From contig JAWMAR010001015.1 of NCBI GenBank assembly GCA_036785375.1, positions 310,001 to 374,000 on the forward strand: DNA of 64,000 bases. The letters are read 5' to 3'. Below, in pieces: positions 4,927-48,509 of the stretch. Numbering within the stretch: the first letter of the stretch is position 1; the number at the start of each line of letters is the position of its first letter. Made by a program: the position numbers and the translations under genes. The stretch is from Leucoraja ocellata. Lineage: Eukaryota. Below the pieces are notes generated by a model, which had not been told where the DNA came from, ran no database searches, and saw nothing but the letters and a program-made list of their open reading frames with translations.

Positions 4927-4972
4927 TCATGGTAACTAATGTTGGCCGTATCATTGTCGATCTCTCGCCCAC

Positions 4973-6150: not shown

Positions 6151-6282
6151 CCCTAGTCTAGGCTTTGTGGTCATCCCTCACTCACACACTGCAACACTTG
6201 TCCTTCAGTGCTAAACTTGTCTGGACCCTATTTTGTGACGGGGTAAAAGATCTGATGATTAGAGTGAATCCCAGCACCGTAC

Positions 6283-6601
6283 CTTGAAAGCTTTTCACTT
6301 CCCGGCTGATACTGGTGTTCGAGGGGGGATGAGACACTATACAGCCGAAGACTGAGCCTTTCTTCCAATCATCTGAACTCACATTCAGGAAGTGGCTGGC
6401 ACTGAAAGTCCCCCCCCTGCTCCAGAGCAGTCGGTGTAGCACTGGTGGTGGAGGAGACTGGGGCTCCGTCTTTCTCCCAAGTGACGTTTATGAGGTCCGG
6501 GTAGAAACCAGAGAGCACACACTCGAGGATGGCTGTGTGGCTGCGCTTGGTCTCTTGGTGAGCTGGAGGCAGCAGTCTGACCTTGGGTCTTTTTGTTTCA
6601 A
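6283..6601 (-). pseudogene. IgW: IgW CH4-like exon, downstream copy A, +1 frameshift
   Basis: 319 nt versus 318 in copy B; G8 run (C8 at 6410-6417) instead of G7; ORF track splits the domain across two frames. Confidence 0.85.
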
Positions 6602-6643
6602 CTGGAACAGAGGAGCAAAGTAGATGTGAAACCCTCTTCCTCA

Positions 6644-6992
6644 AGGGCCTGTCCCACTTACACAACTTTTTTGGCGACTGCCGGCACCCGTGATAGCTCG
6701 TTACAGGTCGCCGAAAAATGTAAACATGTTGAAAATCCAGCGGTGACCAGCACAAGGTATGACTATTTGACTCAAGGTATGACTACTCACGACCATACTG
6801 GCTTCACCCCGCGACATGTCACCAGGTTGTCGCCTGCATGGGCGTGAGTAGCCTCCTCAGTCGCCCAAAGAGTCGTAAAGTCTTTCAGGTTGCCACTGAA
6901 TTTTCAAAATGTTGAAACTTTTTGGCGACCTACAATGACCTATGACGGGTGCCGGCCGTCACCGAAAAAGTTGCGTAAGTGGGAAAGGCCCT
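6644..6992. mobile_element. PIF/Harbinger-type MITE in CH3-CH4 intron of copy A
   Basis: Same TIRs, same TCA TSD and same insertion site as 4582-4926. Confidence 0.8.
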
Positions 6993-7038
6993 TCATGGTA
7001 ACTAATGTTGGCCGTATCATTGCCGATATCTCGCCCAA

Positions 7039-7341
7039 CTTTGGCACTTTCTGTCCGTGCTGACACTGGTGAGGATGATGGAGATCGTTGGGCAGAGCAC
7101 ACAACCTCCACCCCGCTGGTCCACTCCTCCACACTGCTCCGGAGTTTACTGCTCACTCTGTCTTGGGTCCTTTCCACTCTCGGTTGGTGGGTCACAGCCC
7201 CTGTAGTTCTCTCCCTTCCGCTCACTTGCCAGTAGACTTGGACCTGGCTCAGATCAGCGCCCATTACCACGCACACCACAGTAGCGGTCTTGTTGATCCA
7301 AATCTCTTCAGTGGAGGGGTTTTGGATAAAGACAGACAATT
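7039..7341 (-). pseudogene. IgW: IgW CH3-like exon, downstream copy A, splice donor mutated
   Basis: Open 303-nt exon about 99% identical to 4973-5275, but the donor reads G|TTGGGC instead of G|GTGGGC. Confidence 0.85.
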
Positions 7342-7613
7342 CTGCAGATGAGAAATAGGAAGCTTACAAACCGGACAAGGTCTGGTGTTGTCGTCACCGA
7401 TCAACTGGACTCTGACGACTTGCATTCATTTTCCAGACTCACTTTATTGACGTGTGCATAAGGAGAGCAGCACAGTCCCACTTACCTGCTGCTCTGAAAT
7501 TCCATTCAGCATTTATACATAGTTTGACCCTTGAAATTATGCGCACACTCTAATTTCTTATAATTGAACACAATACATTTTCCACAACACTTATACAAAT
7601 ACATTAACACTAA

Positions 7614-10950: not shown

Positions 10951-11841
10951 ACCAAACATCCCTCAGCCCACACATTAGGCATTGCATCCCCCACCATAGA
11001 CCTTCCACCATCGACACTTCACGCTGCCTCAGGAAAGCAGCCAACATCATCAAGGAACCTTCACATCCCAGTCATTGTCTCTACTCCCCTCTCCAGAAGA
11101 TACAAGAAGCTTGAAAGCACATAGCAGCAAATTCAAGGACAGATTTACTTTAAGCACCGACAGGCAGATGCTTAATTGTAACATTGGAATAGAAGAGTTA
11201 CCAATGATGAGTTGTCTCTTTTATTCAACATCATCCGTGCACACCCACTGAGGACAGAGACTCCTCAAACAACCATCCCCCTTGTTGGACACAGATGTCA
11301 TGTGTGGCTCAGTGGTGAGCAATGTCACCTCATGAAAGCTGCTGTCTTTGGGATGAGGCTTTAAGGAGGTGCTTCTCAGGTATATGTCAGCAATGCCACA
11401 ACATGACCACAAGAGTTCTGCTCAGAGTCCTTTTATTTTTATTTTTTTTATTTATTTTTTTTTTATTAGAAGTACGGTAAATTACAATCCTACACAACAC
11501 ATATATCTTAATACATTTTTTGTACCGCTTCATTTTTTTTTTGAGCTTTAAGAAAAAGGTAGAAGTAAGGAAAGTAAAGAAAGTGCAAGAGATTCGTGAA
11601 GTGCAAGAGTGTTGGGAAAAGAAAGCTCCTTAGGAAAGAAGTTAGAGAAGGAAGTAAATTGAGAAAATAGACCCTAGAAAAGAAAGAAAGAGTAAATAGA
11701 AACAATCGCTCTATTATAACATTAAACTCCGCAGAAAGGGGACTACCAACCAAGTCTGTTTTTGTTGTTTTACCTCCCGTTACCAGGTCCTGATACCACT
11801 TATTTATATATTTGTTTTTTTTTTTAAATTACTATTGCACC

Positions 11842-14800
11842 TCATACTTGTAATAGGTCCAGAAACATAGACCACGTCTTTTGGAATTGGTCTGCTTTAC
11901 CTGCTAGGAGGAATCTCATCTCTTCCAGATGTAATGTTTCAAACATATTTGATATCCACATTTTTATTGTTGGTGTCGACGCATTTTTCCAGAATTTAAG
12001 TATAAGCTTTTTTCCCATTATTAGCCCGTAATTAAATAAATTCTTCTGAAACACGTTTAATTCAGGGTTACCTTCCGATATTCCGAAGATAATCCATTCT
12101 GGTTTTGGTACCAGTTTTATTTTGATCAATTTTGAAAAAATATCAAATATTTCATACCAGAATTTTTGGATTTTTGTACAAAAAACAAAAGAGTGCGCTA
12201 TGGTAGCTTCTTGACACAGGCATTTATCACAGATTGGTGAAACATTAGGGAAGATTTTATTTAATTTAGTTTTTGAATAATATAATCTATATAATGTTTT
12301 AAATTGGATGAGCGTATGTCGTACGTTGATCGAACATTTATGCACCTATATAACCATATAACCATATAACAATTACAGCACGGAAACAGGCCATCTCGGC
12401 CCTACAAGTCCATGCCGAACAAATTTTTTTCCCCTTAGTCCCACCTGCCTGCACTCGTACCATAACGCTCCATTCCCTTCTCATCCATATGCCTATCCAA
12501 TTTATTTTTAAATGATACCAATGAACCTGCCTCCACCACTTCCACTGGGAGCTCATTCCACACCGCCACCACTCTCTGCGTAAAGAAGTTCCCCCTCATA
12601 TTACCCCTAAACCTCTGTCCCTTAATTCTGAAGTCATGTCCTCTTGTTTGAATCTTCCCTATTCTCAAAGGGAAAAGCTTGTCCACATCAACTCTGTCTA
12701 TCCCTCTCATCATTTTAAAGACCTCTATCAGGTCCCCCCTTAACCTTCTGCGCTCCAGAGAATAAAGACCTAACTTATTCAACCTATCTCTGTAACTTAG
12801 TTGTTGAAACCCAGGCAATATTCTAGTAAATCTCCTCTGTACTCTCTCTATTTTGTTGACATCCTTCCTATAATTTGGCGACCAAAATTGTACCCCATAC
12901 TCCAGATTTGGTCTCACCAATGCCTTGTACAATTTTAACATTACATCCCAGCTTCTATACTCAATGCTCTGATTTATAAAGGCTAGCATACCAAAAGCTT
13001 TCTTTACCACCCTATCTATATGAGATTCCACCTTCAAGGAACTATGCACGGTTATACCCAGATCCCTCTGTTCAACTGTATTCTTCAATTCCCTACCATT
13101 TACCATGTACCTGTAGTAAATGATTATCCCAGGTCTCTTTTGAGATTTTTATAGCTAATTCTTGTTCCCAATCTTTTCTAATTCCATCTGTTGTGGGTAT
13201 TTCTATGTTTAAAATGATATTATATAGGTACGATATTAAATTAGCTGATTCCGCCTTGGTCTTCATTGCTTCATCCAATAAGTCGGAAGGCATATTATGA
13301 TAGTCTTTTGTGTGTTTTTTCAGATAATCACAAATTTGAAGATATTTAAAATATTGGTTATTTTTCAAATTATATTTCAGTTGTAGTTGTTGAAATGATA
13401 GTAAATTCCCCAATTCATACAGATCTTCGAGCGTTTTGATTCCCATTCTTTCCCATTGTATAAATGATTTGTCTATGATTGATGGTTTAAACAATGGATT
13501 ATTGACTATTGGTATTAAAAGAGATAGGTTTCTTAATTTTAAATTCTGTTTTATTTGTTTCCATGTTCTTATTGTGTTATGTATAATTGGATTTTTATTA
13601 TAATTTTTATTATTCAAATTTATTGGTGAGAGGATGGTCGCTCCTATATTACTCGGGGAGCAGTCCCCTTTTTCCATTACCATCCAGTCCGCCTGCTGTG
13701 CAGAATTGTCCAGCAGGTGAATCATATTTTTAATATTTACTGCCCAATTATAATACATAAAATTAGGGAGCGCTAGACCCCCCAGCTCTTTTCGTTTATT
13801 AAGGTGTGCTATTTGTATTCTATGGGATTTATAATCCCATATAAAATTTGTAATGTCTGAGTCCAATTTTTTGAAAAACTTTTTTGGGAGATATATAGGT
13901 ATTGATTGAAATAGGTATAGAATTTGTGGTAAGAAAATCATTTTAATAGCATTTATTCTGCCTATTAAGGACATCGGAAGTGTTTTCCAGAATTTAATCA
14001 GATTATTCAATTTCTTGAGTAAGGGATTATAATTGGCTTTAAACATATCCTGGTAATTTCTAATAATTTCAATTCCCAAATATTTGAATTTTTCTGTAGC
14101 TATTTTAAAGGGAAATTTCCGAAGATGTGTTGAGTCTTTTGGTTTTATCGACATAATTTCACTTTTGTTCCAATTTATTCTATATCCCGAAAAGGATCCA
14201 AAGTCTTCAATTAAATTTAATATGTTTGGTATACTAATTTGTGGTTTTGTGATGTACAGTAGTACATCATCGGCATATAGGGATATTTTATTCTTTGAGT
14301 ATTTTGTATTATAACCATAAATATCCGGATGTGTTCTTATTTTTTCAGCAAGGGGTTCAATTACCAAAGCAAATAACAGCGGTGATAATGAGCATCCTTG
14401 TCTATTGCCCCTTGATAGTTCAAATTTCGAGGATAAAATATTATTAGTTAATATTCTAGCCGTAGGTTTGTTATATAATAGTTTTATCCATGCGATAAAG
14501 TTTTCTCCCAATTGGAATTTTTGCAATACTTTAATCATATAATCCCATTCTACTTGATCAAACGCTTTTTCTGCGTCCAGTGAGATAATAGATGACTCTT
14601 GGTCGTGAGATTTTTGTGAGTGCATTATGTTAAGCAAACGTCTCAAATTATTGAATGAGTGTCTCTTAGGTATAAATCCTGTTTGATCTCCATTTATTAA
14701 TCTACTAACGTACCTGCTTAGTCTACTGGCTAGTGTTTTCGCTATTATTTTTTGATCCGTATTTAACAAAGCAATAGCTCTATATGAGCCTGGTTCTTCT

Positions 14801-16406
14801 ATGTTTTTATCTTTTTTAAGTATTAATGTGATCGTTGATTCTGCTAAAGTTTCGGGTAAGCTTTGCTCTTTAAAAGCGTATGTATACATTTTCTGTAATC
14901 GTGGGTAACTATATCGTAAAAGGCTTTATAGAATTCACTACTGAATCCGTCTGGTCCTGGTGTTTTGCCGTTCTTTAGTGTTTTTATTGTGTCTTCTATC
15001 TCCTTAGAAGTAATTGTTGCTCCCAGTTCCTCTTGTTCCCTCAATTCTAATTTTGGGAGGTTACAATTTTCCAGAAATTCTGAAACTTTATTATTATCTA
15101 TTGACGTTTTAGATGTATATAGATTTTCGTAAAATTGAGCAAATCTTTTATTGATATCCTTGGGTAATGTTAATAATTCCCCACTATCTGATTTAATCTT
15201 TAGTATTGCATTCTCTTTTTCCCGTTTTTTCAATTGGCGTGCTAAAAGTTTGTGTGGTTTGTCCCCGAATTCAAAGTGTTCTTGTTTTGTAACTTGGAAT
15301 AATGTTATAACTTTCTCTGACAATAATTTATTCAGCTTGAATTTCAATAATAGGATTTTATTATGTTTATCCATAGTTGGATCTTTAGCATTATCTGTAT
15401 CTAATTGTTTTATTTGTTCTTCTAAATGTCTTTGTTCTTTCTTATTCTTTTTATTTTGATAAGCTTGAAATGAAATAATGACTCCTCTAATAAATGCTTT
15501 AAAGGATTCCCATAATAGCGTGGGGGATATATCTGGTGTATCATTTATCTCAAAGAATAAGTCCATCTGTTTTTTTAGATATATACTCCCTTGTGGGTCT
15601 TTTAAAAGTTGCGAATTAAACCTCCAGAACGATTTATTCATAGACATTCCTTCTAATTTTAAAACAAAGGTTAAAGGAGAGTGATCTGAAATCGCATTAA
15701 TGTGGTATTTAGGATTCATAGTGTGTGTAATTAATTTTGTATCCACAAGAAAATAGTCTATCCGTGAATATGTTTTATGCACCGTTGAATAGAACGAGTA
15801 GTCCCTTCCCGTCGGATTTGCAATCCTCCCTACATCTGCTATATTTGTGTTTTCCATATATGTATGTAAGAGTTCACTGGTTTTAGATTTCATATTACCT
15901 TTTTGTTTTTGCATCGATTTATCTAAATAAGGGTCTAAAACACAGTTGAAGTCTCCTCCAATTATAACATTTTGATAATTAAATTCTGCAATTATATTCA
16001 GAATTTTATTAAAAAATTGAGGGTTATCAAAGTTGGGCGCATATATATTTACCAGCGTAATTGGCGTATTATTGATCTCTCCTGCTACTATAAGATATCT
16101 CCCTTCCTTATCTGAAATAGTATTCTTTGATTTAAATGGAATTCCTTTACGAATAATAATTGCAGTACCTCTGGATTTAGAAGTGAATGAAGAGTGAAAT
16201 GTTTGGCCTATCCAGTTAGCCCTCAGTCTCGTCTGATCTTGATGTTTAAGATGCGTTTCCTGTAGGAACGAAATGTCCGTGTTGTATGCTTTCAACTGAG
16301 CTAGTATCTTGCCCCTTTTAATAGGTTCATTAATACCCCTTATATTCCAACTACATAGTGTGACTCCTCCCATTTTCCTTTGATTGTCGTCATACATTTT
16401 TACCAA
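11842..16406 (-). pseudogene. L1 ORF2 (APE endonuclease, reverse transcriptase, C-terminal CCHC), disrupted
   Basis: SWNIRG, LQETH, GGDFN and SDH endonuclease motifs; RQGCSLSP and LYADD RT motifs; CDKC...H...C. Frameshift near 14900 and CR1 insertion at 12348-13104. Confidence 0.95.
12348..13104 (-). mobile_element. 5'-truncated CR1 LINE nested in L1 ORF2
   Basis: ORF 12435-13106 has CR1 C-terminal motifs (LYKALVRPNLEY, RRRLRGDLIEVFK, RVVAVWNELP); (ATATGGTT)n tail; 8-bp TSD ATGCACCT / ATGTACCT. Confidence 0.92.
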
Positions 16407-17333
16407 TTTTAATGACCTTACTTACTATGGTGCATCCATACCTCAGGACTCTGGTTATTTTGGGAGCATTTATATTATAGACTTTCTTGGTAGTTCCCCT
16501 CCGCGATTGTCCTTGAAAAAAAAACACATAAATGTGACATATTGTGATTAAAACAAAAAGTATATAGAATAAATGTACGGTGTCTGGGTTTCCGACACCG
16601 TAGTGAGTGGCCCACTCGTCTGTGGGATACGACATCAATATTGCTTCCGGCGTAGCTGTTATGAGGTTAGCCCCACTGACTTTATTACTCATAACCTAGG
16701 GGGTAGGTACCGTTTCCAAATCAGTTCTATTTCACCCCATTGCAGTATATATATATATATATGTTTCATTCCGACTTATCAAATCTAATCAAGTATTCAG
16801 TTACATATATTCCTCTCTCTTTATCTCTTAACTATTTGTAATTGGTTTTAGTATTGTTAAAAGTGAGCTGTTCGTTGAAAGGGTTAAACAGAGTCAGGCT
16901 CCTGGAATTAAGCCAGGTGCCTGAGTCTCTTCCCCTCCCCACTCGAGCTGCGGAACCTGTGAGATTACCATGTTGTCTGCGTTATAACACATTTTTATCA
17001 ATATCAGTTTATGTATTAGTATTGTTAGTTATTAATTACTAATAATTCTCTATACTTTGTAAGAGTCTGTAAGAGTATGTAAGCCATGTGATGTTTTTCA
17101 GTCTCTCTCAGCTTCAGCAGAACTGCATTCTTCTGTTATCAATGTTTCCTGGTTTGAGCATCGCATGTCCTTGAATTAAATTCGAGAGAAGATTATAATG
17201 TCTAGACATGTCTCGTGGAAAATCTGTTGCGAATAATCATTTTTAAAGCTTGGTGTTATTCACTTTTTTCAATTTTCTACTAATATTCTTGTTGGGGGAA
17301 TAAGCACATTAATTAGTTCATGACGTCTGGTGA

Positions 17334-18365
17334 TCAATCTTCTTTTGTTGCTGCCTTAGCCACGATTTCTTGAGCGTATTTAAGGGATTCTACCGGGTTA
17401 GTGAATGTTTTTGAGATTCCCTTGAAAGTGATACGCATCCTAGCCGGATAAAACACTCCACATATGACGCCCTTGACACCGTAGAGAGCTTCTCTGGTCT
17501 GTGAGAACTTTCTTCTCTTTTGCACAATCTCATAAGGGTAGTCCCGTAGAAGTTTAATAGAATCATTTCCATACATCATCTTCTCTCCGTGTTTAATTTT
17601 TTTCATCAGCGCTTCCACTGTTGGGATATCCCGAAGTTTGACTATGATCTGTCGTGGGTAGGCTTGTTCTCCTTGAAATCTTGGTTTAAATCTAGGTAGT
17701 CGATGTGCTTCTTCAATTACTGGTGCCTCAGGTAAATTGAGTACATGTTTGATTAAATTGGCAGTGAACTCACGAGCGTTTTCCCCCTCAGCTCCCTCTT
17801 TCACTCCACGTATTCGTATATTTTGACGTCTTGAGCGAGCTTCTAGTTCAACACATTTATCAGATACTTTTGTAAATTGGCTCTTGAGGCTGTCTAATTC
17901 TAACTTCATTGCCTCCATTTCTCCAGCCATCTCTTCCACAACAGCTTCCAAATCTTTCACTGCAATTGCATTTGCCGAAATAGTTTCATGCACAGCCTCA
18001 AACATCTTTGTGGACTCTTCTGCCACCTTAGTAATTTTCCCCGTTAGCTCTTCTTGCACATCATCAACTCTTTTTTGCAGAGCACCAATGCCAGCGAGTA
18101 TTTTTTCATTACCAGCATTAATGGATTGTATGTTTTCCATCAAGTTTAAATTTCCAGCTTTCACATCATTTTTCAAATCTCTTACCGAGTTCTTTAATTC
18201 CTCCATTTCAGTTTTCTCTTTTGTGATCAACTCAGTCTTAGATCGTGTAGCCATTCCAGAATCCACTCCAGAGGTTAGTTTTGCAGTTTCTTTATGTTCC
18301 TGAGTCTTCAGCAGGTGTTTTGTCACTTTCCTCTGTGGGCTCTGACCTGGAGATGTATTTTTCAT
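17334..18365 (-). CDS. L1 ORF1 protein (coiled coil plus RRM/CTD), 343 aa, intact
   Basis: LEARSRRQNIRIRGVKEG, AHRL, PRQIIVKL, RDYP and YPARMRI motifs typical of L1 ORF1p. Confidence 0.93.
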   Translation of the reverse strand: MKNTSPGQSPQRKVTKHLLKTQEHKETAKLTSGVDSGMATRSKTELITKEKTEMEELKNSVRDLKNDVKAGNLNLMENIQSINAGNEKILAGIGALQKRVDDVQEELTGKITKVAEESTKMFEAVHETISANAIAVKDLEAVVEEMAGEMEAMKLELDSLKSQFTKVSDKCVELEARSRRQNIRIRGVKEGAEGENAREFTANLIKHVLNLPEAPVIEEAHRLPRFKPRFQGEQAYPRQIIVKLRDIPTVEALMKKIKHGEKMMYGNDSIKLLRDYPYEIVQKRRKFSQTREALYGVKGVICGVFYPARMRITFKGISKTFTNPVESLKYAQEIVAKAATKED

Positions 18366-27203: not shown

Positions 27204-27331
27204 CTACTTTATTTCACACTTTCCTGCCCAACAATGATACTGCTGGGTAGAACCATCTGAGAACGACACATTGAGATTAGTCTGGTAGATGAACTTCGGC
27301 AGACACTTCGAACAGCCGGGACATTTTCGAC
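27204..27331 (-). CDS. IgW: IgW short-form Cys-rich secretory tail exon
   Basis: Not in the ORF track. tttccag acceptor, phase 1; (G)RKCPGCSKCLPKFIYQTNLNVSFSDGSTQQYHCWAGKCEIK*, which I recognise from memory as the skate IgX short-form tail. AATAAA at 27213-27208 and 26881-26876. Confidence 0.92.
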
Positions 27332-27565
27332 CTGGAAATGGAAGATTAATTGATTTAAATGTTAAGAGATTTTTACCTCCCGTGTTGAGGAAAGAGGAGA
27401 TTCACATATTCCCAGTCTGTGTCCTCAGTATTTATCAGCATAAGATTATGCCGACCACGATAAACTGCTTCACTTTGTCCAGGATCAAACAACACTTTAA
27501 AGAGTGTGGAGATGAGTTCAAAAATAATCCAGGCACTGACATTTCAATGAAAGGGAAAGGGCAAT

Positions 27566-28079
27566 CTACAGGTGAGTTGGACAGTTTGGGTGAGTGGGCA
27601 GATGCATGGCAGATACAGTTTAATGTGGATAAATGTGAGGTAGCAAAAATAGGAAGGCAGATTACTATCCTAATTGGGTCAAATTGGGAAATGGGGAAGT
27701 ACAATGGGATCTCGGGGTCCTTGTTCATCAGTCAATGAAAATAAGCATGCAGATACTGCAGGGAGTGAAGAAAGCGAATGGCATGTTGGCCTTTTAACAA
27801 GAGGAGTTGAGTATAGGAGCAAAGAAGTCCTTCTGCAGTTGTACAGGGCCCTAGTAGAGACCACACCTGGAGTATTGTGTGCAGTTTTGGTCCCCTAATG
27901 CGTGGAAGGACATTCTTGCTATTGAGGGAGTGCAGCGTAGGTTCATCAGGTTAATTCCCTGATTGGCGGGACTGTCATGAGCTGAGAGAATGGAGCGGCT
28001 GGGCTTGTATACCCTGGAGTTTAGAAGGATGAGAGGATATCTTATTGAAACATATAAGATTATTAAGGGTTTGGACACT
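27566..28079 (+). mobile_element. CR1 fragment truncated at both ends, at the position expected for CH2
   Basis: CR1 RT C-terminal remnant ending abruptly at KIIKGLDTL with no 3' UTR or tail. Confidence 0.88.
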
Positions 28080-28126
28080 TTAGTTCTATCATCAGCTTTA
28101 AATGGACAACAAAATCTCACACTAAC

Positions 28127-28432
28127 CTTGAGGCTTCGGGAACGCCGTTATTATCATATTGTCCGGCTTGGATCCTGCCATGCAGTAGTAGGTTTTCCTG
28201 TTCCAATCTGCTACAGAGACTCGCAGCAAGCTGCTCATTGTGTACTTGTTGTTTTGTCCCAACACTGGTGGGTACTTTGTTATTCCATTGTTGATGACCC
28301 CACTGCTGGTGGACCATGTCTGACTGATGACCTCAGGCAGGTAGTCCTTGACCAGACAGAGGATGCTGATCTCTTGGCCAGATTCCGTGTTGCACGAAGA
28401 GGTGATGTGGACTGAAGGCAAAACCACATCCT
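28127..28432 (-). CDS. IgW: IgW CH1 exon
   Basis: 306-nt phase-1/phase-1 exon, tttcag acceptor and G|GTTAGT donor; EDVVLPSVHITSSCNTESGQEISILCLVKDYLPEVISQTW...DWNRKTYYC, matching skate IgX CH1 as I recall it. Confidence 0.95.
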
Positions 28433-29479
28433 CTGAAATGGAAATAAATTAACAGTTGGTCCTATAGTAAATGGATTATTACCAGCGCATGCAACAGGTT
28501 CATGCTGATTGCTGAGTGAATGCAGGTGATTCAGGCTGAGAGAAGGCCAGGCAGAGCAGACAAATAGTTCCTTTCCCAGTCCCTTTCACACCGTGCATGA
28601 CCAAGCAGTGAAATGCTGATCTCTCACTGGCGAAGCAACATCTGCCAACCAGAGGGACAAACCGGCCTGTGCTCTGGGTGATGTGTCCCAGGTCAGGAAC
28701 CACATGGTATGGTGCCAGATGGACCATATCTACAACCACCGGGCCAAATGGTGCTGGATCTGGCCTGTTGTGGAACTCCTTCAATGCTGGGCCTCGGGGA
28801 GTGTTGTACAACTAAGGGATCTTGGAGAACAGCTACACAGATCCCAGGAAGCGTTGTCACAGGTAAATAGGTTGGTAAACAAAGCTATTCATGAATCAGG
28901 GAATTGATATACAGTAACCCCTCGTTTTAATGGACCACTTTATAACAGATTTTGGATGTAGCGGACGGACCTGCCGACACCACCCTTGCACGCATGGTCC
29001 TTGGAGTCACCAACATACTGCACCTTGGAAGCAGCAGCTGGTGGGAGGAGAGGGTGCCCCATGGTGAGCATGCACCTTGTCAGTGGCCTGAAGAAAGCAC
29101 TGCCAGTCAGAAGCTACATTGTGAGCCACAACCACAGCCGTGTCACCGGACCGTGCGGTGGATGAAGAAGGACTCGCTGGTGCAGAGCAGAGACAATGGC
29201 GCCTGGTTTTAAGGTGAAATAACACAAAGTACTTCAGTAACCCAGCAGACTGAATCAGTCTGAAGAAGATTCCCCACCTCACCTATTGATGTCCTCCAGA
29301 GATGATCCCTGACCAGTTGAATTACTCCAGCACTTTGTGTCTTTTTGTGTATTAACCAGTATCTGCATTCTTTGTTTCAACTACATACACGGGTAATACC
29401 TTTCTTGTTTAAAGCTAACATTCGGCAATAATGGATACTATCCCCCCCACACCATGGTCCGTTATAATGAGGGTTTACT

Positions 29480-30060
29480 GTTCAGAAGTTGGATGTTATA
29501 CTAGAATGTTACAAGAAATCGGTGAGGCTGAATTTGGAATACAATGTTGAGTTTTCATCAAGCTACTCTCGGAAAGATATCATTAGGCTAGAAGAGTGCT
29601 GAGAAGATTCACAAGTATGTTGCCAGGACTCAAGGGCCTGAGCTGGAGGGAAAAGTAGGGCAGGCTCGGACTTTACTCCTTTATACCTCTAGAAGGCAGA
29701 AGAGTGATCCTATAAAGGTGTATAAAATCATGAAGGGAATAGATAGGGTGAATGCACAGTCTATTACACAGGATAGGGGAATCAAGATATAGGTGAAAAG
29801 ATGTGAGGAACAAGATTTAATGGGAATGTGTGGGGAACTTTCTCATACACAGGGTGGTGGATATATGGAACAGGCTGCCAGAGGAAACAGTTGAGGCAGG
29901 TACGATAACAGCATTTAAAAGACACTTGGACAGATACATGGATAGGAAAATTAGAGGACATGAGGTAAACATGGGCAAGTGGGACTAGCATACATGGAAC
30001 ATCAGGCTGCCTTGCACAAGCTGAGCTGAAAGGCCTGTTTCCATGCTGTATGACTCTATG
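29480..30060 (+). mobile_element. Degenerate CR1 3' fragment
   Basis: Decayed RRFTSMLPGL, VYKIMKGIDRV and WNRLPEETV segments. Confidence 0.7.
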
Positions 30061-30417
30061 TCTCTGAGTTATTAATGGGCTGGGAAATGCTTTGAGATGT
30101 CCTGGGGTTGTGGAAACCTTCAACAAAATAAAAAAACATCAAATAAAAGTGGAAATAGTGGTTGTCAGATACTGTACTGAAAGAGTTTGATGATAGAGCA
30201 CTGAAGTGAAAGGGTGATTCTGCTTCTCTCCCCACAGATGCTGCCTGAGCTGTCGAGTGTTTCGTGCAGGAGGATCAATGATGTCAGGCGGCGAGACTTG
30301 TAGCTCACAGTGTTTTCCATCCCGGGATCAGCAGGTGGTGAGTGCAGTTTAATTTGGATCAATGTTCCTAATGTGGTCAGGAGGTGGGTCAGAGACAGGA
30401 AAACACATCATACTAGC

Positions 30418-30648
30418 AGCTGGGGTGAGGAGCTGGGTGCTGGGGTGAGGAGCTGGGTGCTGGGGGGAGGAGCTGGGTGCTGGGGGGAGGAGCTGGGTGC
30501 TGGGGGGAGGAGCTGGGTGCTGGGGGGAGGAGCTGGGGGGAGGAGCTGGGTGCTGGGGGGAGGAGCTGGGTGCTGGGGGGAGGAGCTGGGTGCTGGGGGG
30601 AGGAGCTGGGTGCTGGGGGGAGGAGCTGGGTGCTGGGGGGAGGAGCTG
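30418..30648 (+). repeat. G-rich 20-bp tandem array (TGGGGGGAGGAGCTGGGTGC)n, about 11.5 units, in J-CH1 intron
   Basis: Read directly; 13 AGCT motifs; one shortened unit at about 30531-30543. Confidence 0.95.
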
Positions 30649-31544
30649 CAATAAACTTCCCGTCTGGGTTGCCATCCTGGGGGCATTTAGTGCCAATTGC
30701 GTTGCTGGGTCAGGGGTCAGAAATAGGCTCGACTGGGTAAGGACAATAGATCTCCTCCTCTGAGGGACAGCGGGGAAACTGAGAGGTCATCATTACTGTG
30801 GATTTGTGCACAAAATCCAGGTTACTAACAAAAGAAAATCTGACACTGGTCCAATCTGTCCCAGATTACGAACAAAGTTTAAATTCCACAGTTGTTACGG
30901 AATTAAACTGGGGTCTGATTGTAGCCTGATGCCCGTCCATTGGATCACTGTAACTGTGGTGTCTCGGACAACATTTTCCCCTCACCAGCGGTATGCCGAT
31001 TCTGCTGTGTGCAGAGTGGATCCACAGTCCCTCCTTTACAACACGGCTCTATTGTGAACATGCCTCACTGCCTGTGAAGCGCTCGGGAACACCATGAAAG
31101 GTGCTCTGTCAATCACTGAGATTCACTGAGACACCAGCAGCCCTGGTTAATGGAACAAAGCACGTGTTGGACAAACCCAGTCAGTCGGCTGGCGGAGGAG
31201 GGCAGCAAATTAGAGCCGTGCCTCCATCTGTGAACTGGGAAAAAGCAGCTCTTTTGTGCAGCAAAACCCACGTCAAAAACACCAAGCAACTTGACTCAGA
31301 ATCTAAACTATGCGCATCAGTGAATTCACAATGAAGAATAAAAGGTATTGACTTACTAAGGATCTCTAAATGTTGAAATTCAATACAAGACGCCACGAAA
31401 ACCAGGTGTACTAAACCCCACATCTACAGTAGAACCATGTACAACATTCTCTCATTACTTTCAAATCATTCATTATTGTGAACCTTTGTTTTTGAACCAG
31501 CATCAATGTGTTTTACAATCTAGGGAATGTTCTGTGTTCTGAAG

Positions 31545-31870
31545 CATTTACACAAGGAGTGTTTGACAGAGCAATGTAGAGGGAGCTCGACTCTCTGTCA
31601 AACACACTGTCCCTGCACTGGGAGAGAGTGTAGAGGGAACTTCACTCAGTGACTAACCCGTACCCTGGGTGTGTGTGGAGACAGGTTGGATGGAGCCTCA
31701 CTCCTTGTCTAACCTGTGCTGTCCCTTCCCTGGGAGTGTTGGGACAGGAAGATGGAACTTTGTATCTAATCTGTAGCTGACAGCACAGTGACACGGGGAG
31801 ATTTATTCTGCATTTGACTCATGCTCTGTCTGACCTGGATGTGTTTGATGGGATCGCTTTGCGGGAGCAG
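31545..31870 (+). repeat. Degenerate about 60-65 bp tandem/satellite-like repeat
   Basis: Recurring GGGAGTGTTTG...GTAGAGGGA(G/A)CT...ACTC...CTAAC...CTGTCCCT units. Confidence 0.6.
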
Positions 31871-31939
31871 GTACTGGAGTCATAGCGTCATAGATTAATA
31901 GTGTGGAAACAGGCAGATTAATCTCCAAAAGACTGGAGG

Positions 31940-33200
31940 GTGGCTGATACTGACGCGTAATTGAAGAAGGACATTAGGGCCAAGCCAGGGATCTACACCA
32001 GTGAGCCTGACGTCATTGGTGGGAATGTCCTTAGGGATAGGAACTACCCATATTTGGATAGACACGGACTGATTTGGGATAGTCCTAAATTTACAAGATC
32101 TAGATCATTTGGGAGGGTGGGCCAAGGATTAGGGACAGCATGGCTTGTGTTGGGGAAATTGTGCCTCATGGACCTGATAAGGTTCAATAAGGTCTGGCAT
32201 GGTGGGCTGGCGTGGAAGGTTAGATCTCATGAAACCCAACATGAACTAAATTAGCTTGGAGGAAGTGGACTACTGCAGGGGTCAGTGCAGAGACCACTGT
32301 TGTTGGTTATCTACATTAACAGTTTGCCATACAATATAGTGGACATTGATAGTAAGTTTGCAGATGACACCAAAATCAGAGCATGAGTGGACAGTGAGAG
32401 GGATAAGTTTACAATAAGATCAAGATCAGTTGGGAAAGTGAGCCAAGGAATGCCAAATGGAATTTAACTCTGACAAGTGAGGGAGTGTTGAACTGTGGTA
32501 GATCAAACCAGGGCTGGACTTACACAGTAAATGGTAGCGCCTGAAGAGTGTTGTAGAACAGACAGATGTGGAAATGCAGAGGCATGGTTCGCTGAGAGTG
32601 GCGAGTTAGGTGGACAGGGAGCTGAGGTGGCTTTTGGCAGACTGCCTTCGATGGGAAGGGTACTGCGTATAAAAGTTGGGACATGATGATGCAGCTGTAT
32701 AAGTCATTGGTGAGACCACGCTTGGAGTAAGTACTGTGTGTAGTTCTGCTCACCCAACTACAGGATGTCATTATATTGGAAAGGACTTGGAAAAGATTCA
32801 CCAAGATATTGTCTGGACATGTGAGGTTCTGTTTTAGGGAGAGGGAGGATAAGGTGGGTTTTTTCCCCTTTGGGGCAAAGGACACTGCGCAGTAACCTTA
32901 TTGAGGTGAACAAGATCATGAGGGGCATGGATAAGGTGCACGCTCACAGGCTTTGTCCCAGGATAGAGGTTTCTAAAACAAGAGGGCACAGGCGTAAGGT
33001 GAGTGGGGAGAGATTTAAAAGGGGACTTCAAGGGCATTTTTATTCACATTGGGTAGGCAGTATCTGGAATGAGTTGCCAGAGAAAACTATAAAAGCAGAT
33101 AGAATTACGAAAAATCCGGTATATGGATGAGAAGGGTATGTGGCCAATGGGCCGAGCCCAGAAAGCCAGCTTGGTCGGCATGCACAAGATGGACTGAAGG
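31940..33200 (+). mobile_element. Old degenerate CR1 LINE
   Basis: SKFADDTKI, LYKSLVRPRLE and TRGHRRKV remnants with many stops. Confidence 0.75.
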
Positions 33201-33420
33201 CAGATGATGGCGAGACTCAGGGAAAGAACAGCCTGTGGGGCAGTTCAACGTGGTGGGAAATGTACTGTTGCTGGGTAGATTCTAACTCTGGAGAAACCCG
33301 CCCGTGTCCGGGAAATCCGTTCCAAATATCACACCGAGTTCAGGTCAATTACAGAATTGGCAAAGACCATACATTAATAAAACACAACTGGGTAAAATGG
33401 AATTGAGGAATTGGTCTTAC

Positions 33421-33468
33421 CTGAAGTCACTGTCAGCGAGGTTCCTGCACCCCAGTAGTCAAGATAAT
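33421..33468 (-). CDS. IgW: IgW JH gene segment
   Basis: YLDYWGAGTSLTVTS with WGXG motif, followed by G|GTAAG donor at 33420. Confidence 0.95.
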
Positions 33469-33833: not shown

Positions 33834-33899
33834 AGTTTTTGTTCAGCTCTCCACCGCCGTGGGCCAGTATACACGGTGATTCACCGCCGCTCACAAACT
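33834..33899 (-). other. IgW: D2 segment (33862-33871, TATACTGGCC) flanked by two 12-RSS
   Basis: 5' side CACGGTG-12-TCACAAACT (33872-33899); 3' side CACGGCG-12-ACAAAAACT (33861-33834). Confidence 0.87.
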
Positions 33900-34226: not shown

Positions 34227-34305
34227 GGTTTTTGTATTGAGGAAGTCCCATCTCTCACACTGTGCCACCCATATAGTCACAGTGATTCACCGCCGTACAA
34301 TAACC
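34227..34305 (-). other. IgW: D1 segment (34265-34277, ACTATATGGGTGG) with 5' 12-RSS and 3' 22-RSS
   Basis: CACAGTG-12-ACAATAACC (34278-34305); CACAGTG-22-ACAAAAACC (34264-34227). Confidence 0.93.
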
Positions 34306-34552: not shown

Positions 34553-34850
34553 TCTCTCGCACAGTAATAGGTGGCCGTGTCGGCCAGACTCAGGCGGGTC
34601 ATTTGGAGATAGACATTGCTGTTGTCCTTGGAAACCTCGAATCGGCCGCTGAAGGCAGGCGCGTATAGTTTGTTACCATTATTCTGCATCACCGCCACCC
34701 ACTCCAGCCCTTTCCCGGGGACTTGTTTCACCCAGCTCACGTGGTAGCTGCTGAGGCTGAACCCGCTGGTTACACAGGTCAGTTTGAGGGACTCTCCGGG
34801 CTTTGCCGCCTCGGTCGGTTTCTGATTCAGCACGACCGCGGATCGAACGC
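34553..34850 (-). CDS. IgW: IgW VH exon (germline, unrearranged)
   Basis: ttgacag acceptor; VVLNQ...[32 protein letters not shown]...DTATYYCAR, open frame, abuts RSS. Confidence 0.97.
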
Positions 34851-34980: not shown

Positions 34981-35026
34981 CTGGCAGACAGGACAGAAGG
35001 AGACAGAGATAAGCAGCGACCCCCAT
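34981..35026 (-). CDS. IgW: IgW leader exon
   Basis: 46-nt ATG exon [15 protein letters not shown](G), phase-1 donor G|GTGGGT, 130-nt intron to V exon. Confidence 0.93.
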
Positions 35027-35123: not shown

Positions 35124-35916
35124 GGAAAGTGAGCTGTGAGTGAGAGACAGAGAGAGAGGTAGCCGCGGTTTCCCCACCCACTGAAACCAGAGGCGCGGCT
35201 TCCTGTCCCTGCCCCCAGCACCCAGTTCAATTCCCCAAAAGGTGTTTGTCTCCACAACAGGTGGAGGGGCAATGATGAGATCCGGATTAAAGATTGATCC
35301 CACTCTGCTCCATCCACTCATTACAATGATGAACACTTTGTGGAGCAAGAGGTCACTCAGATCCCCAGTGAGGGGCTGAGTTAAAAGTCGGTGTACAGAT
35401 ATCCCCCTGAGAGAGAGGGACATCTGTCAATGTAGATATCCCCTGCCTTGGGAGAGAGGGGCTAAATTTCACCGGTCAGTGTACAGATATCGTGGTGAGA
35501 GAGAGGGACTGAGAGAGACCAGTTAGTGTACAGATATCGTGGTGAGAGAGAGGGACTGAGAGAGACCAGTTAGTGCAGATATCCACATCAATGAGAGGAC
35601 TGAGAGACACCAGTCAGTTTGAGTTGAGTTTATTGTCACATGTACCGAGGTACAGTGAAAAGCTTTAGTTGCATGTTAACCAGACAACAGACGGACAATA
35701 CATGATTACATTTGAGCACAGTGAGCAGAAACATGATGAAGGGAATAACATGAATAAAGTTCAGTGCAAGATAAAACCAGTAAATTCTGATCAAAGATAG
35801 TGCGAGGATCTCCAATGAGGTAGATAGAGCACAGAAGTCAAGCTACAACAGCCAGTCGTGATGCTATGAATGAAGTCCATCTACGCCTATATCGGTGACA
35901 ATCTACAACAATGTAT

Positions 35917-36202
35917 GACCATACCGGTGACATGCTACGACCATACCAGCGACATGCTACGACCATACCAGCGACATGCTACGACCATACCAGCAACATG
36001 CTATGACCATACCAACGACATGCTATGACCATACCGGCAACATGCTATGACCATACCAACAACATGCTATGACCATACCAGCGACATGCTATGACCATAC
36101 CAACGACATGCTACGATCGTACCGGCGACATGCTACGACCATACCGGCGACATGCTATGACCATACCAGCAACATGCTATGACCAAACCGGCGACATGCT
36201 AC
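35917..36202 (+). repeat. 22-bp tandem repeat (GACCATACCAGCGACATGCTAY) x13
   Basis: Read directly. Confidence 0.93.
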
Positions 36203-36483
36203 GACAGCTGGCGACCATCGGCAACAGTTGACGTGACTAGCTACACCAGGCTACAACAGTGGCTCCTCCATGAGTCCCCTTTTTCTCCAGGAGACGGCCC
36301 ACCCAGTGTCTTCGGCTCCTGAAACAGCTCAGGGGGAAGCCTGGTGAAGTTTCTGAAGGCAGCCTCATCTTCTTGCTGGAGCTCAGTCATCAGGTTGTCA
36401 TATTGGCCCAACCTGGGTCTCTACAGGGACAAGGGCATCAACCACACACACACCTCTTCTTGGACTTCCTCTTACCCATTCTT

Positions 36484-38888: not shown

Positions 38889-39070
38889 NNNNNNNNNNNN
38901 NNNNNNNNNNNNNNNNNNNNNNNNNNNNNNNNNNNNNNNNNNNNNNNNNNNNNNNNNNNNNNNNNNNNNNNNNNNNNNNNNNNNNNNNNNNNNNNNNNNN
39001 NNNNNNNNNNNNNNNNNNNNNNNNNNNNNNNNNNNNNNNNNNNNNNNNNNNNNNNNNNNNNNNNNNNNNN
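38889..39070. other. Assembly gap (182 N)
   Basis: Run of N inside a degenerate GTGTACAGATATCCC...GAGAGAG repeat. Confidence 1.
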
Positions 39071-39574: not shown

Positions 39575-42230
39575 TTCAGATTCAATTTAATTGTCATTGT
39601 CAGTGTACAGTACAGAGACAACGAAATGCATTTAGCATCTCCCTTGAAGAGCGACATAGCAAACGATTTGAATACATAATAATAAGTGTCCGGGGGGGGG
39701 GGGGGGGGGGGGGTGGCGATTGGCAGTCACCGAGGTACGTTGTTTAGTAGAGTGACAGCCGCCGGAAAGAAGCTGTTCCTCGACCTGCTGGTTCGGCAAC
39801 GGAGAGACCTGTAGCGCCTCCCGGATGGTAGGAGGGTAAACAGTCCATGGTTGGGGTGAGAGCAGTCCTTGGCGATGCTGAGCGCCCTCCGCAGACAGCG
39901 CTTGCTTTGGACAGACTCAATGGAGGGGAGCGAGGAACCGGTGATGCGTTGGGCAATTTTCACCACCCTCTGCAATGCCTTCCGGTCGGAGATAGAGCAG
40001 TTGCCATACCATACTGTGATGCAGTTGGTAAGGATGCTCTCGATGGTGCAGCGGTAGAAGTTCACCAGGATCTGAGGAGACAGATGGACCTTCTTCAGTC
40101 TCCTCAGGAAGAAGAGACGCTGATGAGCCTTCTTGATCAGAGTAGAGGTATTGTGGGTCCAAGAGAGGTCATCGGAGATGTTGACTCCCAGGAACCTGAA
40201 GCTAGAAACACGTTCCACCTCCGTCCCGTTAATGTGGATGGGGGTGTGCGTGCCGCCTCTGGACTTCCTGAAGTCTACAATGAGCTCCTTGGTCTTCTTG
40301 GAGTTAAGGGCCAGGTTGTTGTCAGCGCACCATGCTGCTAAGTGCTGGACCTCCTCCCTGTAGGCCAGCTCATCGTTGTTGCTGATGAGGCCAATCACCG
40401 TTGTATCATCTGCATACTTGATGATGGTGTTAGTACCATGTACAGGTGTGCAGTCATAGGTGAAGAGGGAGTAGAGGAGGGGGCTCAGCACACAGCCCTG
40501 AGGAACGCCGGTGTTCAGGGTGAGGGTTGAAGAGGTGTGCTTGTCTAACCTCACAGACTGGGGTCTGTTGGTTAGAAAGTCCAGTATCCAGTTGCAGAGG
40601 GAGGGGTCGATGCCCAGGTTACCGAGTTTGGTGATCAGTTTTGATGGAATAATGGTGTTGAATGCTGAGCTGTAATCGATGAACAGCATTCTTACATAAG
40701 TGTCTCTGTTGTCGAGGTGGGAGAGGGCGGAGTGAAGTGCCGTTGAGATGGCATCCTCCGTACTCCTGTTCTTGCGGTAGGCAAACTGATAGGGATCCAG
40801 TGTGGGGGGTAGGCAGCTTTTGAGGTGTGCCAGGACCAGCCTCTCGAAGCACTTGGTGATAATGGGGGTAAGTGCAACTGGGCGGAAGTCGTTGAGGCTT
40901 GCCGCAGTGGAGTGTTTTGGCACGTGCACGATGGAGGTGGCTTTAAGGCAAGTGGGGACAACTGCTTGGGCAAGTGACAGGTTGAAGATGTCAGTCCAGA
41001 CGTCTGTCAGCTGCGCAGCACAGGCCCTGAGCACGCGCCCGGGGATGCCGTCAGGGCCAGCAGCTTTACGTGCATTAGTCCTACTCAGTGCCACGTACAC
41101 GTCGTAGGGGGTGAGTGTGAGGGGTTGGTGATCGGCAGGTAGCACAGCCTTGATGGCTGTCTCTAGATTGTCCCTGTCGAAGCGGCCATAGAAGTGATTA
41201 AGCTCCTCAAGGAAGGAGGCGTCGCTGGATGTGGGGGTGATGTTGGAGGGTCTGTAGTCCGTGATGGCCTGGATGCCTTGCCACATGCGTCGGGGGTCGG
41301 AGTTGTTGTTGAAGTGCTCCTCAATCCAGAGCTTATGGCAGTGCTTGGCCTTCCTGATGCCCCTCTTCAGGTTAGCCCTGGATGAACTGTAGGCTCGAGC
41401 ATCGCCTGACCTGAAAGCGGTGTCCCGTGCTTTCAGCAGTAGCCTGACCTCGCTGTTCATCCATGGCTTCTGATTCGGGTATATGGTCACCTGTTTGAGG
41501 GAGGTGACACTATTGATGGTGGAGTTTATAAAGTCCAGAACAGAGGATGTGTAGGAATCAATGTCCGTGTGAGAGCCAAGGGTGGCCTGGGCTGCAAACG
41601 CCTTCCAGTCAGTGTTTCCAAAACACTGCTGAAGTGTGAAGTCCGCTTCCTCTGACCAGACTTTAACTGTCCTCACAGTTGGTTTAACCCGTCTGATGAG
41701 TGGGGAGTACTTAGGGAGCAGGAACAATGAGACGTGATCAGACTGACCAAGGTGGGGGAGGGGGATGGCTTTGTAAGCTTCAGCCATGTTGGTGTAGACT
41801 TTGTCCAGTGTCTTGTCTACTCTAGTGGGGAAGGATACATGTTGGTGGAATTTGGGGAGTACAGTCTTCAGGTTGCAGTGATTGAAGTCACCCGCAACAA
41901 TGAAGGCTGCCTCGGGGTTGTGCGTCTGTTGTTTGCTAATGGCAGTATGCAGCTCTTTCATTGCAAGCTTGGCATTAGCATCAGGGGGGATATAGGCTGC
42001 AGTCACAACAGTGGAGGTGAACTCTCTGGGCAGATAGAACGGTCTGCATCTAACCAAGAGGAACTCAAGGTTAGCTGAGCAGTGACTCTCGATGATGATG
42101 GAGTCCGTGCACCATGCTTTGTTTACATAAATGCACAGACCCCCCCCTCTGGTCTTACCAGAGTCTGATGTCCTGTCCGCTCGGAGTAAATGACGCCCCG
42201 ATAGCTGGATGGCGCTGTCAGGAACGTCAG
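39575..42230 (-). mobile_element. Rex1/Babar-type LINE with long intact pol ORF (39727-42057), 5'-truncated
   Basis: RPFYLPREF, AGDFNH, SDH endonuclease motifs; GVPQGCVLSP and KYADD RT motifs; 776 aa without stops. Confidence 0.93.
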
Positions 42231-44029
42231 ATAAAACTTATTAGCAGAATCTTCTGCCTCCACTAACCTTGGAAGAATCAATGTGAACCAGAATATCTTG
42301 GGTGGAAGGAGGATTATATATTGGTGAGGAATTTTCTCTCGCAGAGATTAAAACTGAGTTTCACTCCTGGACAGGTGTCCCCTCACTGCTGTTAGAAAAC
42401 CCTTTGATCTGTGTCAGCTATGGGTCTTTTGATCCATGTTTTCAAGAACAGGAAGTGCAACACTAAGAGAAGCAGTCACACTGAGAAACAGGAGGCTGCC
42501 CAGTCAAGGGAGCAGCCAAGTGCTCAATGGCAGGAAATCACAGGGAGAGACGTTCTGTGGAGGATCTGTTCCTACTTCAGAATGGTCTCACAACAGTTCT
42601 AAATCATGCAGCTCCAACAGACATAGAGCAACAAACACAGCTCAATCCAACTCCCATGGCAGCTAAACAGATGTCCTGTTACCCTTTCAACCTCACTTTT
42701 ACCATTGCCATTTGCCCTTTTACAGGAACTTGGGACAGTTAATGGAGATGTCTTGAGGACAGTGTGTATTATGGACATGGAGGTGGTCGATGTCCTCAGG
42801 CGTATGACAGTAGATATGAAGATTGTACAAAACATTGATGTTTGGAATGCATTACCAGGGGACGTTGTGGAAGCAGATACGACAGCAATGATTAAAAGGC
42901 ATTTAGAGATAGATTAGACATTCAGTATTTTCTTTCTCTCGGGGTATGAATGTTTTGGTTCCACTTGTATTCCAAAGTATGTTTTGCCTCACATCAGTGG
43001 TAGGAATGTAATTGGAGAGGATTCTTTGGGATAGGATTTACTACCATTTGGAAGCCAATGAGCTAGTAAGGGACCATCAGCATGGCTTTGTACGCCACAG
43101 ATCATGTCTTACTAACTTGATTGATTTTGTTGAGGAGGTGACAAAGGTGATCGATGAAGGTAGGGCAGTGGATGTTGTCCATATGGACCATAGTAAGGCA
43201 TTTGAGAAAGTTCTCCATGGTTGGTTGTCCAAGAAGGTCAAAATGCACAGCCTTCAGAGTGATTTTGTCGTCTGGGTCAATACCTGTTTACTGATAGAAG
43301 ACAGAGGCTTGTGGTGAAGGGCATTATTCAGAGTGGAAGTCTGTGACCAGCTGAGCTCTGCAGTGATCTGCGGACAGTGAGCAAGGATGTTAAAGTATAG
43401 ATCTGCGAGGAGGATGCTATGAGGCTGCAGGGTGACTTGGATTGGTTGGGTGAGTGGGCAGATGCACTCTAAAGTAAAGACGATATAGATCAGCTCAGAA
43501 ATGGGCAAAGAAATGGAAAATGAGGTTTAATCCGACTAAATGCTGTTGTTTTACTAAAAATGACCGATATTCTCCACACTTGCATGAAGCACATCTCTGT
43601 CTTCAGACTCAGTCCTATTGGTCAGTTATCTTTTCAGTAACGTAAGAATTGTTTATAGGTGTTGGTCTTTAAGTCAGGGACATATTTCCATATGTCAAGC
43701 AGCCTGCTTGTTCTTTTTAGCAAGTCTGTTCCCTGTGGGATTCCCCCTGTTCAGATTAAGACAATCTGCCATCTCCAACAGGAAATCTGAGGTGAAGGAA
43801 ATAGTGCCCACATCACTGTCCAGTTTCACACACCCATCAACAGTCAAAATATGAAACATGTTTCTGGTAAATCAACAGCTGCATGCAGAGATTGTGTTCA
43901 AATTTGTCCCATGCATAGAGGATCAGTAAAAAGGTTCTTCAGCCCTACAGCCCATTCCCACTCTCTGCTGATCTGTGTTTGAACTCCATTTATCCACCTT
44001 GTATAAATGGAGTCCTTTAATCACCAAAG

Positions 44030-46949: not shown

Positions 46950-47082
46950 GACACCCGGGTCACTGACCCTCAACTCCCCCGGACACCCGGGTCACTGACC
47001 CTCAACTCCCCCGGACCCCCGGGTCACTGACCCTCACCTCCCCCGGACCCCCGGGTCACTGACCCTCACCTCCCCCGGACCC
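46950..47082 (+). repeat. About 33-bp GC-rich tandem repeat (CCCGGGTCACTGACCCTCA..TCCCCCGGAC) x4
   Basis: Read directly. Confidence 0.88.
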
Positions 47083-48509
47083 CAGCTGGACAAGGAGCAC
47101 CTGGGCCAGCCCGCATTCCCGAGAGGGAAATGCTCCTCAGGCATCGCCAAGTCTCATCTCACTCCGGATGTTTTTGCCACTTCACTGACACACACACACA
47201 CACACACACACACTGGCACACACACTGGCACACACAAGGTTTAAAGGGATGTAGGCCAAATGCGGATAAATGGGACTAGTTTAGATGGGGCATCTTGTCT
47301 GCATTAACAAGTTGGGATGAAGGGCCTGTTTCCATGCTGTAAGACTATGACACATTGTAGAAAGGGTGTAATTGCTCTGGAGAGTATCCAGGGGTGATTT
47401 ATGAATATGTTGGCAGGGCTGGAATTTTTTGTTTCATTTTGGAGAAAGATTTGATAACTGGGATTGTATTCTCTGCAGTATCGGAGATGAAGGAAAAACT
47501 TAGTTGAGGTGAAAAATATTATGAGAATCGGACCTATTTTGCTTAACAAACAGTGTAGGAAGGAACTGCAGATGCTGGTTTAAACTGAAGATAGACACTA
47601 AAAACTAGTAAATCTCAGCAGGACAGGCAGCATCTCTGGAGCGATAGAATGGGTGATATATCGGGTCGAGACCTTCAGACTGAAGAGGTTGAAACGTATG
47701 ATTTGAGATGTGTGTTATCCAGCTAAGGGCAGAAATCAGAATCACATGTTCATCTTTATTGACGTGACACCATAATAAATATATTACAGAAAAAATAATT
47801 TAATGGTGTGGCACGGTGGCGCAGCAGTAGAGTTGCTGCCTTACTATTACATGGGTTTTCTCTGGATATTCCGGTTTCTCCCATATCTGAAAGAAGTGCT
47901 GGTTTGTAGGTTAATTGGCTTCTGTAAATTGTCCCTGGCGTGATGGACGTAACTGGTATATGATAGATTGCTGGTCAGTGTGGCCTTGGTGGGCTGAAGT
48001 GCCTGTTTCCATTTATATATTTTACATATATATCTTAATTTCATTGAACCATATATGATTGAATATGCGGCATTATTTTCAACTTGTTTCTAAATTCAAA
48101 AGGTAAGGATGATTGATTTATTTGTACAGACTGTGGTGGAAGTCCGACTCTTGCCTTAGTTATCTGTGTTTTCCTCTATATATATATATATGCATAACAG
48201 CATGAATATAATCTGATTTCCATACATGAATATAGCCATTCATGTGCTGCACCATGTGCTGTTGATCAAAGCCTGGCTCTATTGTGGAATGTAATCAGGA
48301 ATGCAATTTAGCCTAACTTTATTCATACCTAATCCAATTTAAAGCATAAATGTTGCATTCAAGTGTAAGTTAAAAGACTCACTACAGTATGCACCAGATT
48401 GCACAATTTAAAGCAGAAAATGTGAAAGCTACCTACCGTGGGAGGGGGGGGGGGGGGGGGGGGGACAATTTCTCACTCTCAACTCTCACCCAATGTTGGC
48501 AGCCCTATT

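Follow-up and report, generated by a model that had tools for sequence, protein, structure and literature searches.

Organization of the IgW cluster

The window (the whole 64,000-nt stretch of Leucoraja ocellata DNA that was analysed) carries on its minus strand what is, judged by sequence similarity, a skate IgW (IgX) heavy-chain cluster. The assignment follows from Cw1, which is 93% and 91% identical to IgX proteins of L. erinacea and 89% identical to that of Amblyraja radiata, compared with 61–69% for stingrays, electric rays and sawfish. The locus also has the composition of an IgW cluster, with L-V-D-D-J segments and their RSS, Cw1, a cysteine-rich short tail and a long form with further C exons. 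The following features were identified (the basis is given in parentheses).

34981..35026, minus strand: IgW leader exon (homology, splice sites)
34553..34850, minus strand: VH exon in open frame; a 23-RSS follows at 34552 (RSS scan, homology)
34265..34277, minus strand: D1, flanked by a 12-RSS and a 22-RSS (RSS scan)
33862..33871, minus strand: D2; two mismatches in the heptamer of its 3' 12-RSS (RSS scan)
33421..33468, minus strand: JH (WGAGTSLTV) with a 23-RSS and a GT donor (RSS scan, splice sites)
28433..33420, minus strand: J-Cw1 intron, about 5.0 kb (splice sites, homology)
28127..28432, minus strand: Cw1 exon (homology, splice sites)
27204..27331, minus strand: short-form cysteine-rich secretory exon (homology, splice sites)
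24853-24551, minus strand: Cw3 (homology, splice sites)
24006-23689, minus strand: Cw4 (homology, splice sites)
22690-22370, minus strand: Cw5 (homology, splice sites)
19704-19319, minus strand: Cw6 with a long secretory tail (homology, splice sites)

Canonical splice sites are present at L, V, J, Cw1, the short tail and Cw3-Cw6, and the RSS and motif scans gave spacers of 23 (V), 12/22 (D1), 12 (D2) and 23 (J). The 5' RSS of D2 fell below the scan threshold; because both of its RSS (33849-33890, minus strand) deviate from the consensus, D2 may rearrange poorly. No transmembrane exon was found by motif search within the 64-kb window. A Cw2 exon normally stands before the short tail and is carried by 15 of 16 homologous proteins at E < 1e-20, but no match to it was obtained in the interval from Cw1 to Cw3, the best E being 2.5; either this is a naturally shorter IgW or the exon was lost in assembly. 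An in-frame splice from Cw1 to the short cysteine-rich tail is possible, and most of the 795 nt separating the two (27332-28126) is occupied by a CR1-like LINE piece (27559-28082). The end of Cw1 (28127-28165, minus strand) is closer to Amblyraja protein P0009 than to Leucoraja proteins P0002 and P0008, the remainder being Leucoraja-like, which may reflect gene conversion or a retained paralogue type.

Two tandem pairs of Cw3-like/Cw4-like exons, about 60–70% identical to Cw3/Cw4, lie downstream of Cw6 (4220-7345, minus strand); the first pair is apparently broken (no GT donor near 7038, a frameshift near 6410) and the second looks intact. Between Cw6 and these pairs an L1-like element was located at about 11840-18365 (minus strand), its family being judged by eye from the translations (a 343-aa ORF1-like frame and endonuclease and reverse-transcriptase frames of 525 and 610 aa); a CR1-like piece (12435-13148) splits it. 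A LINE frame at 39727-42237 (minus strand), on the upstream side of the V exon, encodes an 836-aa open endonuclease/reverse transcriptase and appears to be young. The assembly around the cluster is not gapless, since a 182-nt run of N fills a gap at 38889-39070.

Structure and word content of the array

A tandem array is located within the J-Cw1 intron, which also contains CR1-like LINE pieces near 29492-29985 and 31925-33097.

30419..30648, plus strand: G-rich minisatellite made of about 11.5 copies of the 20-nt unit GCTGGGGGGAGGAGCTGGGT (TRF, unit decomposition)
30519..30531, plus strand: 13-nt unit without the 7-mer GCTGGGT, a slippage signature (unit decomposition)

TRF returned a period of 20, 11.9 copies, 93% matches and a score of 397 for 30419-30648, and unit decomposition gave ten full 20-nt units, the 13-nt unit at 30519 and a final partial unit; the first-pass annotation, which had placed about 11.5 copies at 30418..30648, is confirmed by both. 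Of the ten full units, eight are identical and each of the first two is one base off; the mean difference between units is 0.36 of 20 nt. Head-to-tail units in the 10–60-nt range that are homogeneous inside the array are those of a minisatellite. The hexamer GCTGGG occurs twice per unit, and a 15-nt unit motif has 23 matches in the window (3.4 expected), 12 of them inside the array. Protein coding was rejected, the open frames of the array being low-complexity translations within an intron.

The segment 30418-30650 (233 nt) contains 13 AGCT (12 of these GAGCT), ten TGCT and 24 sites of WGCW, the word favoured by AID (10.3 WGCW per 100 nt); 25 WGCW sites at 3- to 13-nt spacing lie within 30415-30650. 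Per 230 nt, AGCT occurs 0.82 times on average over the window and six times in the best stretch outside the array, compared with 13 times in the array. It had been annotated that every copy holds GAGCT, TGCT and G-runs and that GAGCT and GGGGT are the words of which mammalian S-mu is made. The dense GAGCT (12 sites) was borne out, but TGCT is present in ten of the 12 units and GGGGT occurs only twice in the array. Two further points of that annotation hold: the array lies between JH and CH1, 2,773 nt from the J donor (33421) and about 1,990 nt from Cw1 (acceptor at 28433), and, once VDJ joining has taken place, the ATG would be about 3.3 kb away; and its G-rich strand is the template strand, the plus strand being G-rich and the gene lying on the minus strand.

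The GC content of the array is 74%. Its sense strand is C-rich (64% C, 10% G), so that the array has the reverse orientation of mammalian S regions; G is scarce on the sense strand of the whole intron (15–26% G per 500 nt). Four G-quadruplex patterns were found on the plus (template) strand, with a mean G4Hunter-type score of 1.77 for the array, and the sense strand has a weak predicted fold (−13.6 kcal/mol, three-pair stems, z −2.9). AGCT enrichment is limited to the repeat and the remaining intron is at background: with the array excluded, the intron has 3.8 AGCT per kb (window 3.6) and 18.8 WGCW per kb (window 18.6). A motif scan reaching up to 600 nt from the array detected no TATA box, octamer or CpG island (CpG o/e 0.17–0.53).

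Five tandem arrays of at least 70 nt, this one included, are present in the 64-kb window. Several are strongly G/C-skewed, and AGCT is found in the J-Cw1 intron array only. A 22-mer repeated 13 times at 35914-36205, about 0.9 kb upstream of the leader, has 5.2 WGCW per 100 nt and no AGCT; the further arrays are a 47-mer at 35452-35618, a 32-mer rich in C at 46950-47083 and, at 60660-60890, a G-rich tract of irregular structure. The highest G4Hunter-type score of the window belongs to the G-rich tract at 60673 (2.2 versus 1.89 for the intron array).

Among the 63,779 20-mers of the window, 7.1% hold AGCT, 2.4% hold AGCT plus a G3/C3 run and 0.7% hold both of these plus a second WGCW; on shuffling of the array unit, AGCT appeared in 2.7% and the stricter AGCT-plus pattern in 0.1%. 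The chance of any array per 5-kb intron was put at about 1 in 3 (a hand estimate from five arrays in one 64-kb window), and the joint chance of an AGCT-plus-G-run array in such an intron is about 0.2–2% per cluster. The coincidence of AGCT and G-runs is unusual, though the pattern was chosen post hoc and Ig clusters are numerous.

Homologous introns in other skates

Part of 29950-31550 was found in 20 of 24 listed sequencing runs; no RNA run is among those listed, which has no bearing on expression. Contigs of four of the 24 runs, with species labels A, B, D and E (one each), were aligned to 29990-31550 at 80% likeness; lack of cover at 30639-30700 (run X4) or at the array centre (run X16) was not counted as absence. 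The left flank is continued into the first units by a contig of A (30284-30445, no differences) and a contig of D (30347-30436). In B the array is entered from the same side by 30309-30456 (one difference) and by 30309-30444 (eight differences, diverged type), so that array-edge units occur in two diverged intron types; in E one contig carries the shared left-edge variants and, among the contigs listed, three cover 30639-30647. Array-edge units are retained in the homologous introns of all four aligned runs. Since one and the same flank runs into these units in contigs of four species labels, the array appears to have been inherited with the intron; the flanks are shared as well as the array, which speaks for descent and is not evidence of selection.

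Unit sequence and structure have turned over between lineages at this one locus, as in VNTRs. B, D and E have in common both a G>T at 30639 and a pair of changes by which the last AGCT is abolished. In D, GCTGGGT, the same 7-mer that is missing from the 13-nt unit 30519..30531, is inserted behind 30418, and the contig returns to 30419 with 12–14 extra letters, which imply a longer unit in D; the spacers carry WGCW.

The flank contigs of A and D have depths of about 90–170, compared with 20–40 for scattered contigs, which suggests, as a rough guide since depth is not copy number, a few near-identical clusters in A and D. The maximum depth in array bins was 235 in A, 63 in B, 1165 in D and 39 in E, values that G-rich dropout may lower, and the arrays of D may be longer, with more copies. 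The LINE end at 29990-30095 reached a depth of more than 139,000; a dispersed satellite or repeat family was rejected on comparing the array bins (at most 1165) with this adjoining element. The array length of 230 nt holds for the assembly, in which collapse is possible, as no contig listed spans the array.

One contig of A (309 nt; run X4, record 17, depth 39.4) joins 30158 to 30918 and skips the array entirely.

30159..30917 (759 nt), no strand assigned: segment skipped by a diverged homologous contig, with the whole array inside (contig alignment)

This contig has four differences in 86 nt and 19 in 196 nt, i.e. its flanks are about 90–95% identical; the skipped segment extends about 260 and 270 nt past the two edges of the array, and 14 filler letters are present at the joint. 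From the homology of its flanks we infer that the contig belongs to another IgW cluster. The question raised at annotation, whether the array belongs to such clusters or is scattered through the genome, is thus answered partly in favour of the former by the edges in homologous introns of four labels, but not for every copy. Searches of a metagenome collection, ill-suited to skate DNA and given no evidential weight, yielded no match to the repeat motif and 17 pattern matches to the IgX protein, none of which was confirmed.

Comparison with switch regions and minisatellites

Like an S region, the array is an AGCT/WGCW-rich tandem repeat 2.0 kb upstream of a CH exon (Cw1), and it shares with mammalian S-mu and S-gamma tandem GAGCT with G-runs in the J-C intron at high WGCW density. 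Mammalian S regions differ in their length of 1–10 kb (mouse), compared with 230 nt here in the assembly (PMC2442634, PMC5904731, PMC9149575), and in their non-template strand, which is rich in G and suited to R-loops, whereas in the skate array the template strand is G-rich; the latter has, in addition, no visible I-promoter, no known downstream partner S region and little GGGGT. With one feature of S regions present and two (length and strand) failing, the label was withheld, although the array could act like a weak S region.

When a 2-kb synthetic S-gamma1 was inverted, switching, expressed relative to wild type, fell from 31% to 9% (PMC2442634, Table I), and S-region inversion impairs R-loops in mice (PMC5904731). 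Switching in a mouse line can be sustained by a synthetic S-alpha that has nine repeats, each 80 nt long and holding four AGCT (PMC4245955), so that a few dozen sites can suffice given the right G-richness and a nearby promoter. Xenopus S-mu is AGCT-rich like the skate array, but it is AT-rich and located in a translocon, whereas the skate array is short and GC-rich. It acts through AGCT and sense-strand R-loops are not required (PMC2442634, PMC4279169); orientation would therefore matter less for an AGCT-rich array. Shark Ig clusters are described as switching without S regions, with targeting unresolved (PMC4279169, PMC5192425, PMC8201067, PMC6795676), and IgM, IgW and IgNAR clusters as lying near one another (PMC12227049). 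Inter-cluster switching in the nurse shark (PMC4279169, PMC5192425, PMC8201067) resembles the present case in the IgW cluster and in the intron where joins would occur; it differs in being reported without S regions.

A literature search, which covered few subscription papers, found neither a description of this array nor any report of J-C intron repeats in the IgW of skates or sharks. Zhu et al. in 2012 and Zhang et al. in 2013 reportedly located nurse shark switch junctions in the intron flanking JH. G-rich vertebrate minisatellites (VNTRs) have units of 10–60 nt, G/C strand asymmetry and G4 potential. The skate array shares these traits with them, as it does copies that are nearly identical, variation that is polar, with the variant units at one end, and unit turnover between species, and its unit contains an octamer that departs from the Chi-like core at one position; it differs in its location in an Ig J-C intron and in its two WGCW per unit.

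Origin and possible role of the array

The array is a real, old and locus-specific minisatellite, for which a switch function is unproven and unlikely. Because it is short, runs opposite to mammalian S regions and is missing from one related copy, it is probably an ordinary ancestral minisatellite that was inherited with the intron and turned over by slippage between GCTGGG repeats, with no switch function. It would have originated once in an ancestral skate IgW intron and then have been handed down through speciation and the duplication of clusters. Slippage or unequal exchange between paired GCTGGG, to which the 7-nt loss here, the 7-nt gain in D and the species-specific units point, would lead to gain and loss of units and to the spread of new variants, and the AGCT density would derive from one seed unit that chanced to hold AGCT and was copied about 12 times. 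The confinement of the AGCT excess to the repeat, with the intron remainder near the window background, argues for this origin, as do units that are homogenised here yet different in B, D and E and the homologue without the array. Further points in its favour are the five tandem arrays of the window, one of which scores higher for G4, the C-rich sense strand, and the reviews according to which shark Ig loci switch without S regions (PMC4279169, PMC8201067). Set against it are the low joint chance, the standing of the array as the sole AGCT-bearing one of five, the edges kept in all four runs, the WGCW in the variant spacers of D, the partial activity of inverted S regions and the R-loop independence of Xenopus S-mu.

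The first-pass annotation had proposed a candidate AID target for switching, a proposal with which the motifs and location agree and that the shortness, the inversion, the distance of 2.8 kb from J and the homologue without the array weaken. It might still be that an array of neutral origin serves as an incidental AID hotspot in which some inter-cluster junctions fall, but we consider this unlikely. A template-strand G-quadruplex would stall Pol II in IgW-expressing B cells and the close WGCW palindromes would lead to staggered nicks, as the 25 closely spaced sites and the four template-strand G4 patterns would allow. The array is, however, only 230 nt long, its exposed sense strand folds weakly and, with J 2.8 kb and the ATG about 3.3 kb away, it is likely to lie past the usual hypermutation zone as known for mammals. 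In keeping with such a hotspot, switching in sharks is considered to be driven by AID and to occur alongside hypermutation (PMC4279169), and inverted S regions show residual switching activity (9%; PMC2442634). A selected proto-switch element of skate IgW clusters, directing constant-region exchange between clusters through its AGCT density as in Xenopus S-mu or through antisense transcription, is distinctly less probable. The array is in the right intron, has S-like words that are improbable by chance, keeps its edges in four species labels and retains WGCW in variant units; but one homologous copy is without it, the flanks are conserved equally, it is short and inverted, and the motif scan up to 600 nt away turned up neither an octamer nor a TATA box nor a CpG island as a mark of a germline or antisense promoter. 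There is also no known partner array in IgM, and the reviews report no S regions in sharks (PMC4279169, PMC8201067). Equally small is the chance we allow that most skate IgW clusters hold a short inverted AGCT-dense array which is kept from species to species while its unit evolves and which focuses AID breaks, thereby steering the exchange of constant regions among clusters.

Least probable of all would be a germline site prone to recombination, which would promote deletion and gene conversion among IgW clusters and play no part in B cells. The 759 nt lost across the array in one homologue are consistent with such a site, as is a host cluster that is itself without Cw2 and has duplicated downstream exons, but the deletion has its ends about 260 and 270 nt beyond the array, where 14 filler letters stand at the joint, and the loss of Cw2 lies 2.3 kb off, beside a LINE piece.

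As a plain minisatellite the array is of little importance. The targeting of isotype switching between shark or skate Ig clusters, if any, is an open question in the field (PMC4279169). Homologous introns with and without a WGCW-dense array apparently coexist in one animal and constitute a natural test of AID preference, in that mapping of junctions and mutations in the two kinds of copy can ask whether the AID of cartilaginous fish favours such sequence. A preference for the array, if true, would date S-like targeting before tetrapods. A proto-switch element, if that reading were true, would be the first S-like element in cartilaginous fish and would offer a cluster without Cw2 a route by which to pass its VDJ to a complete constant region.
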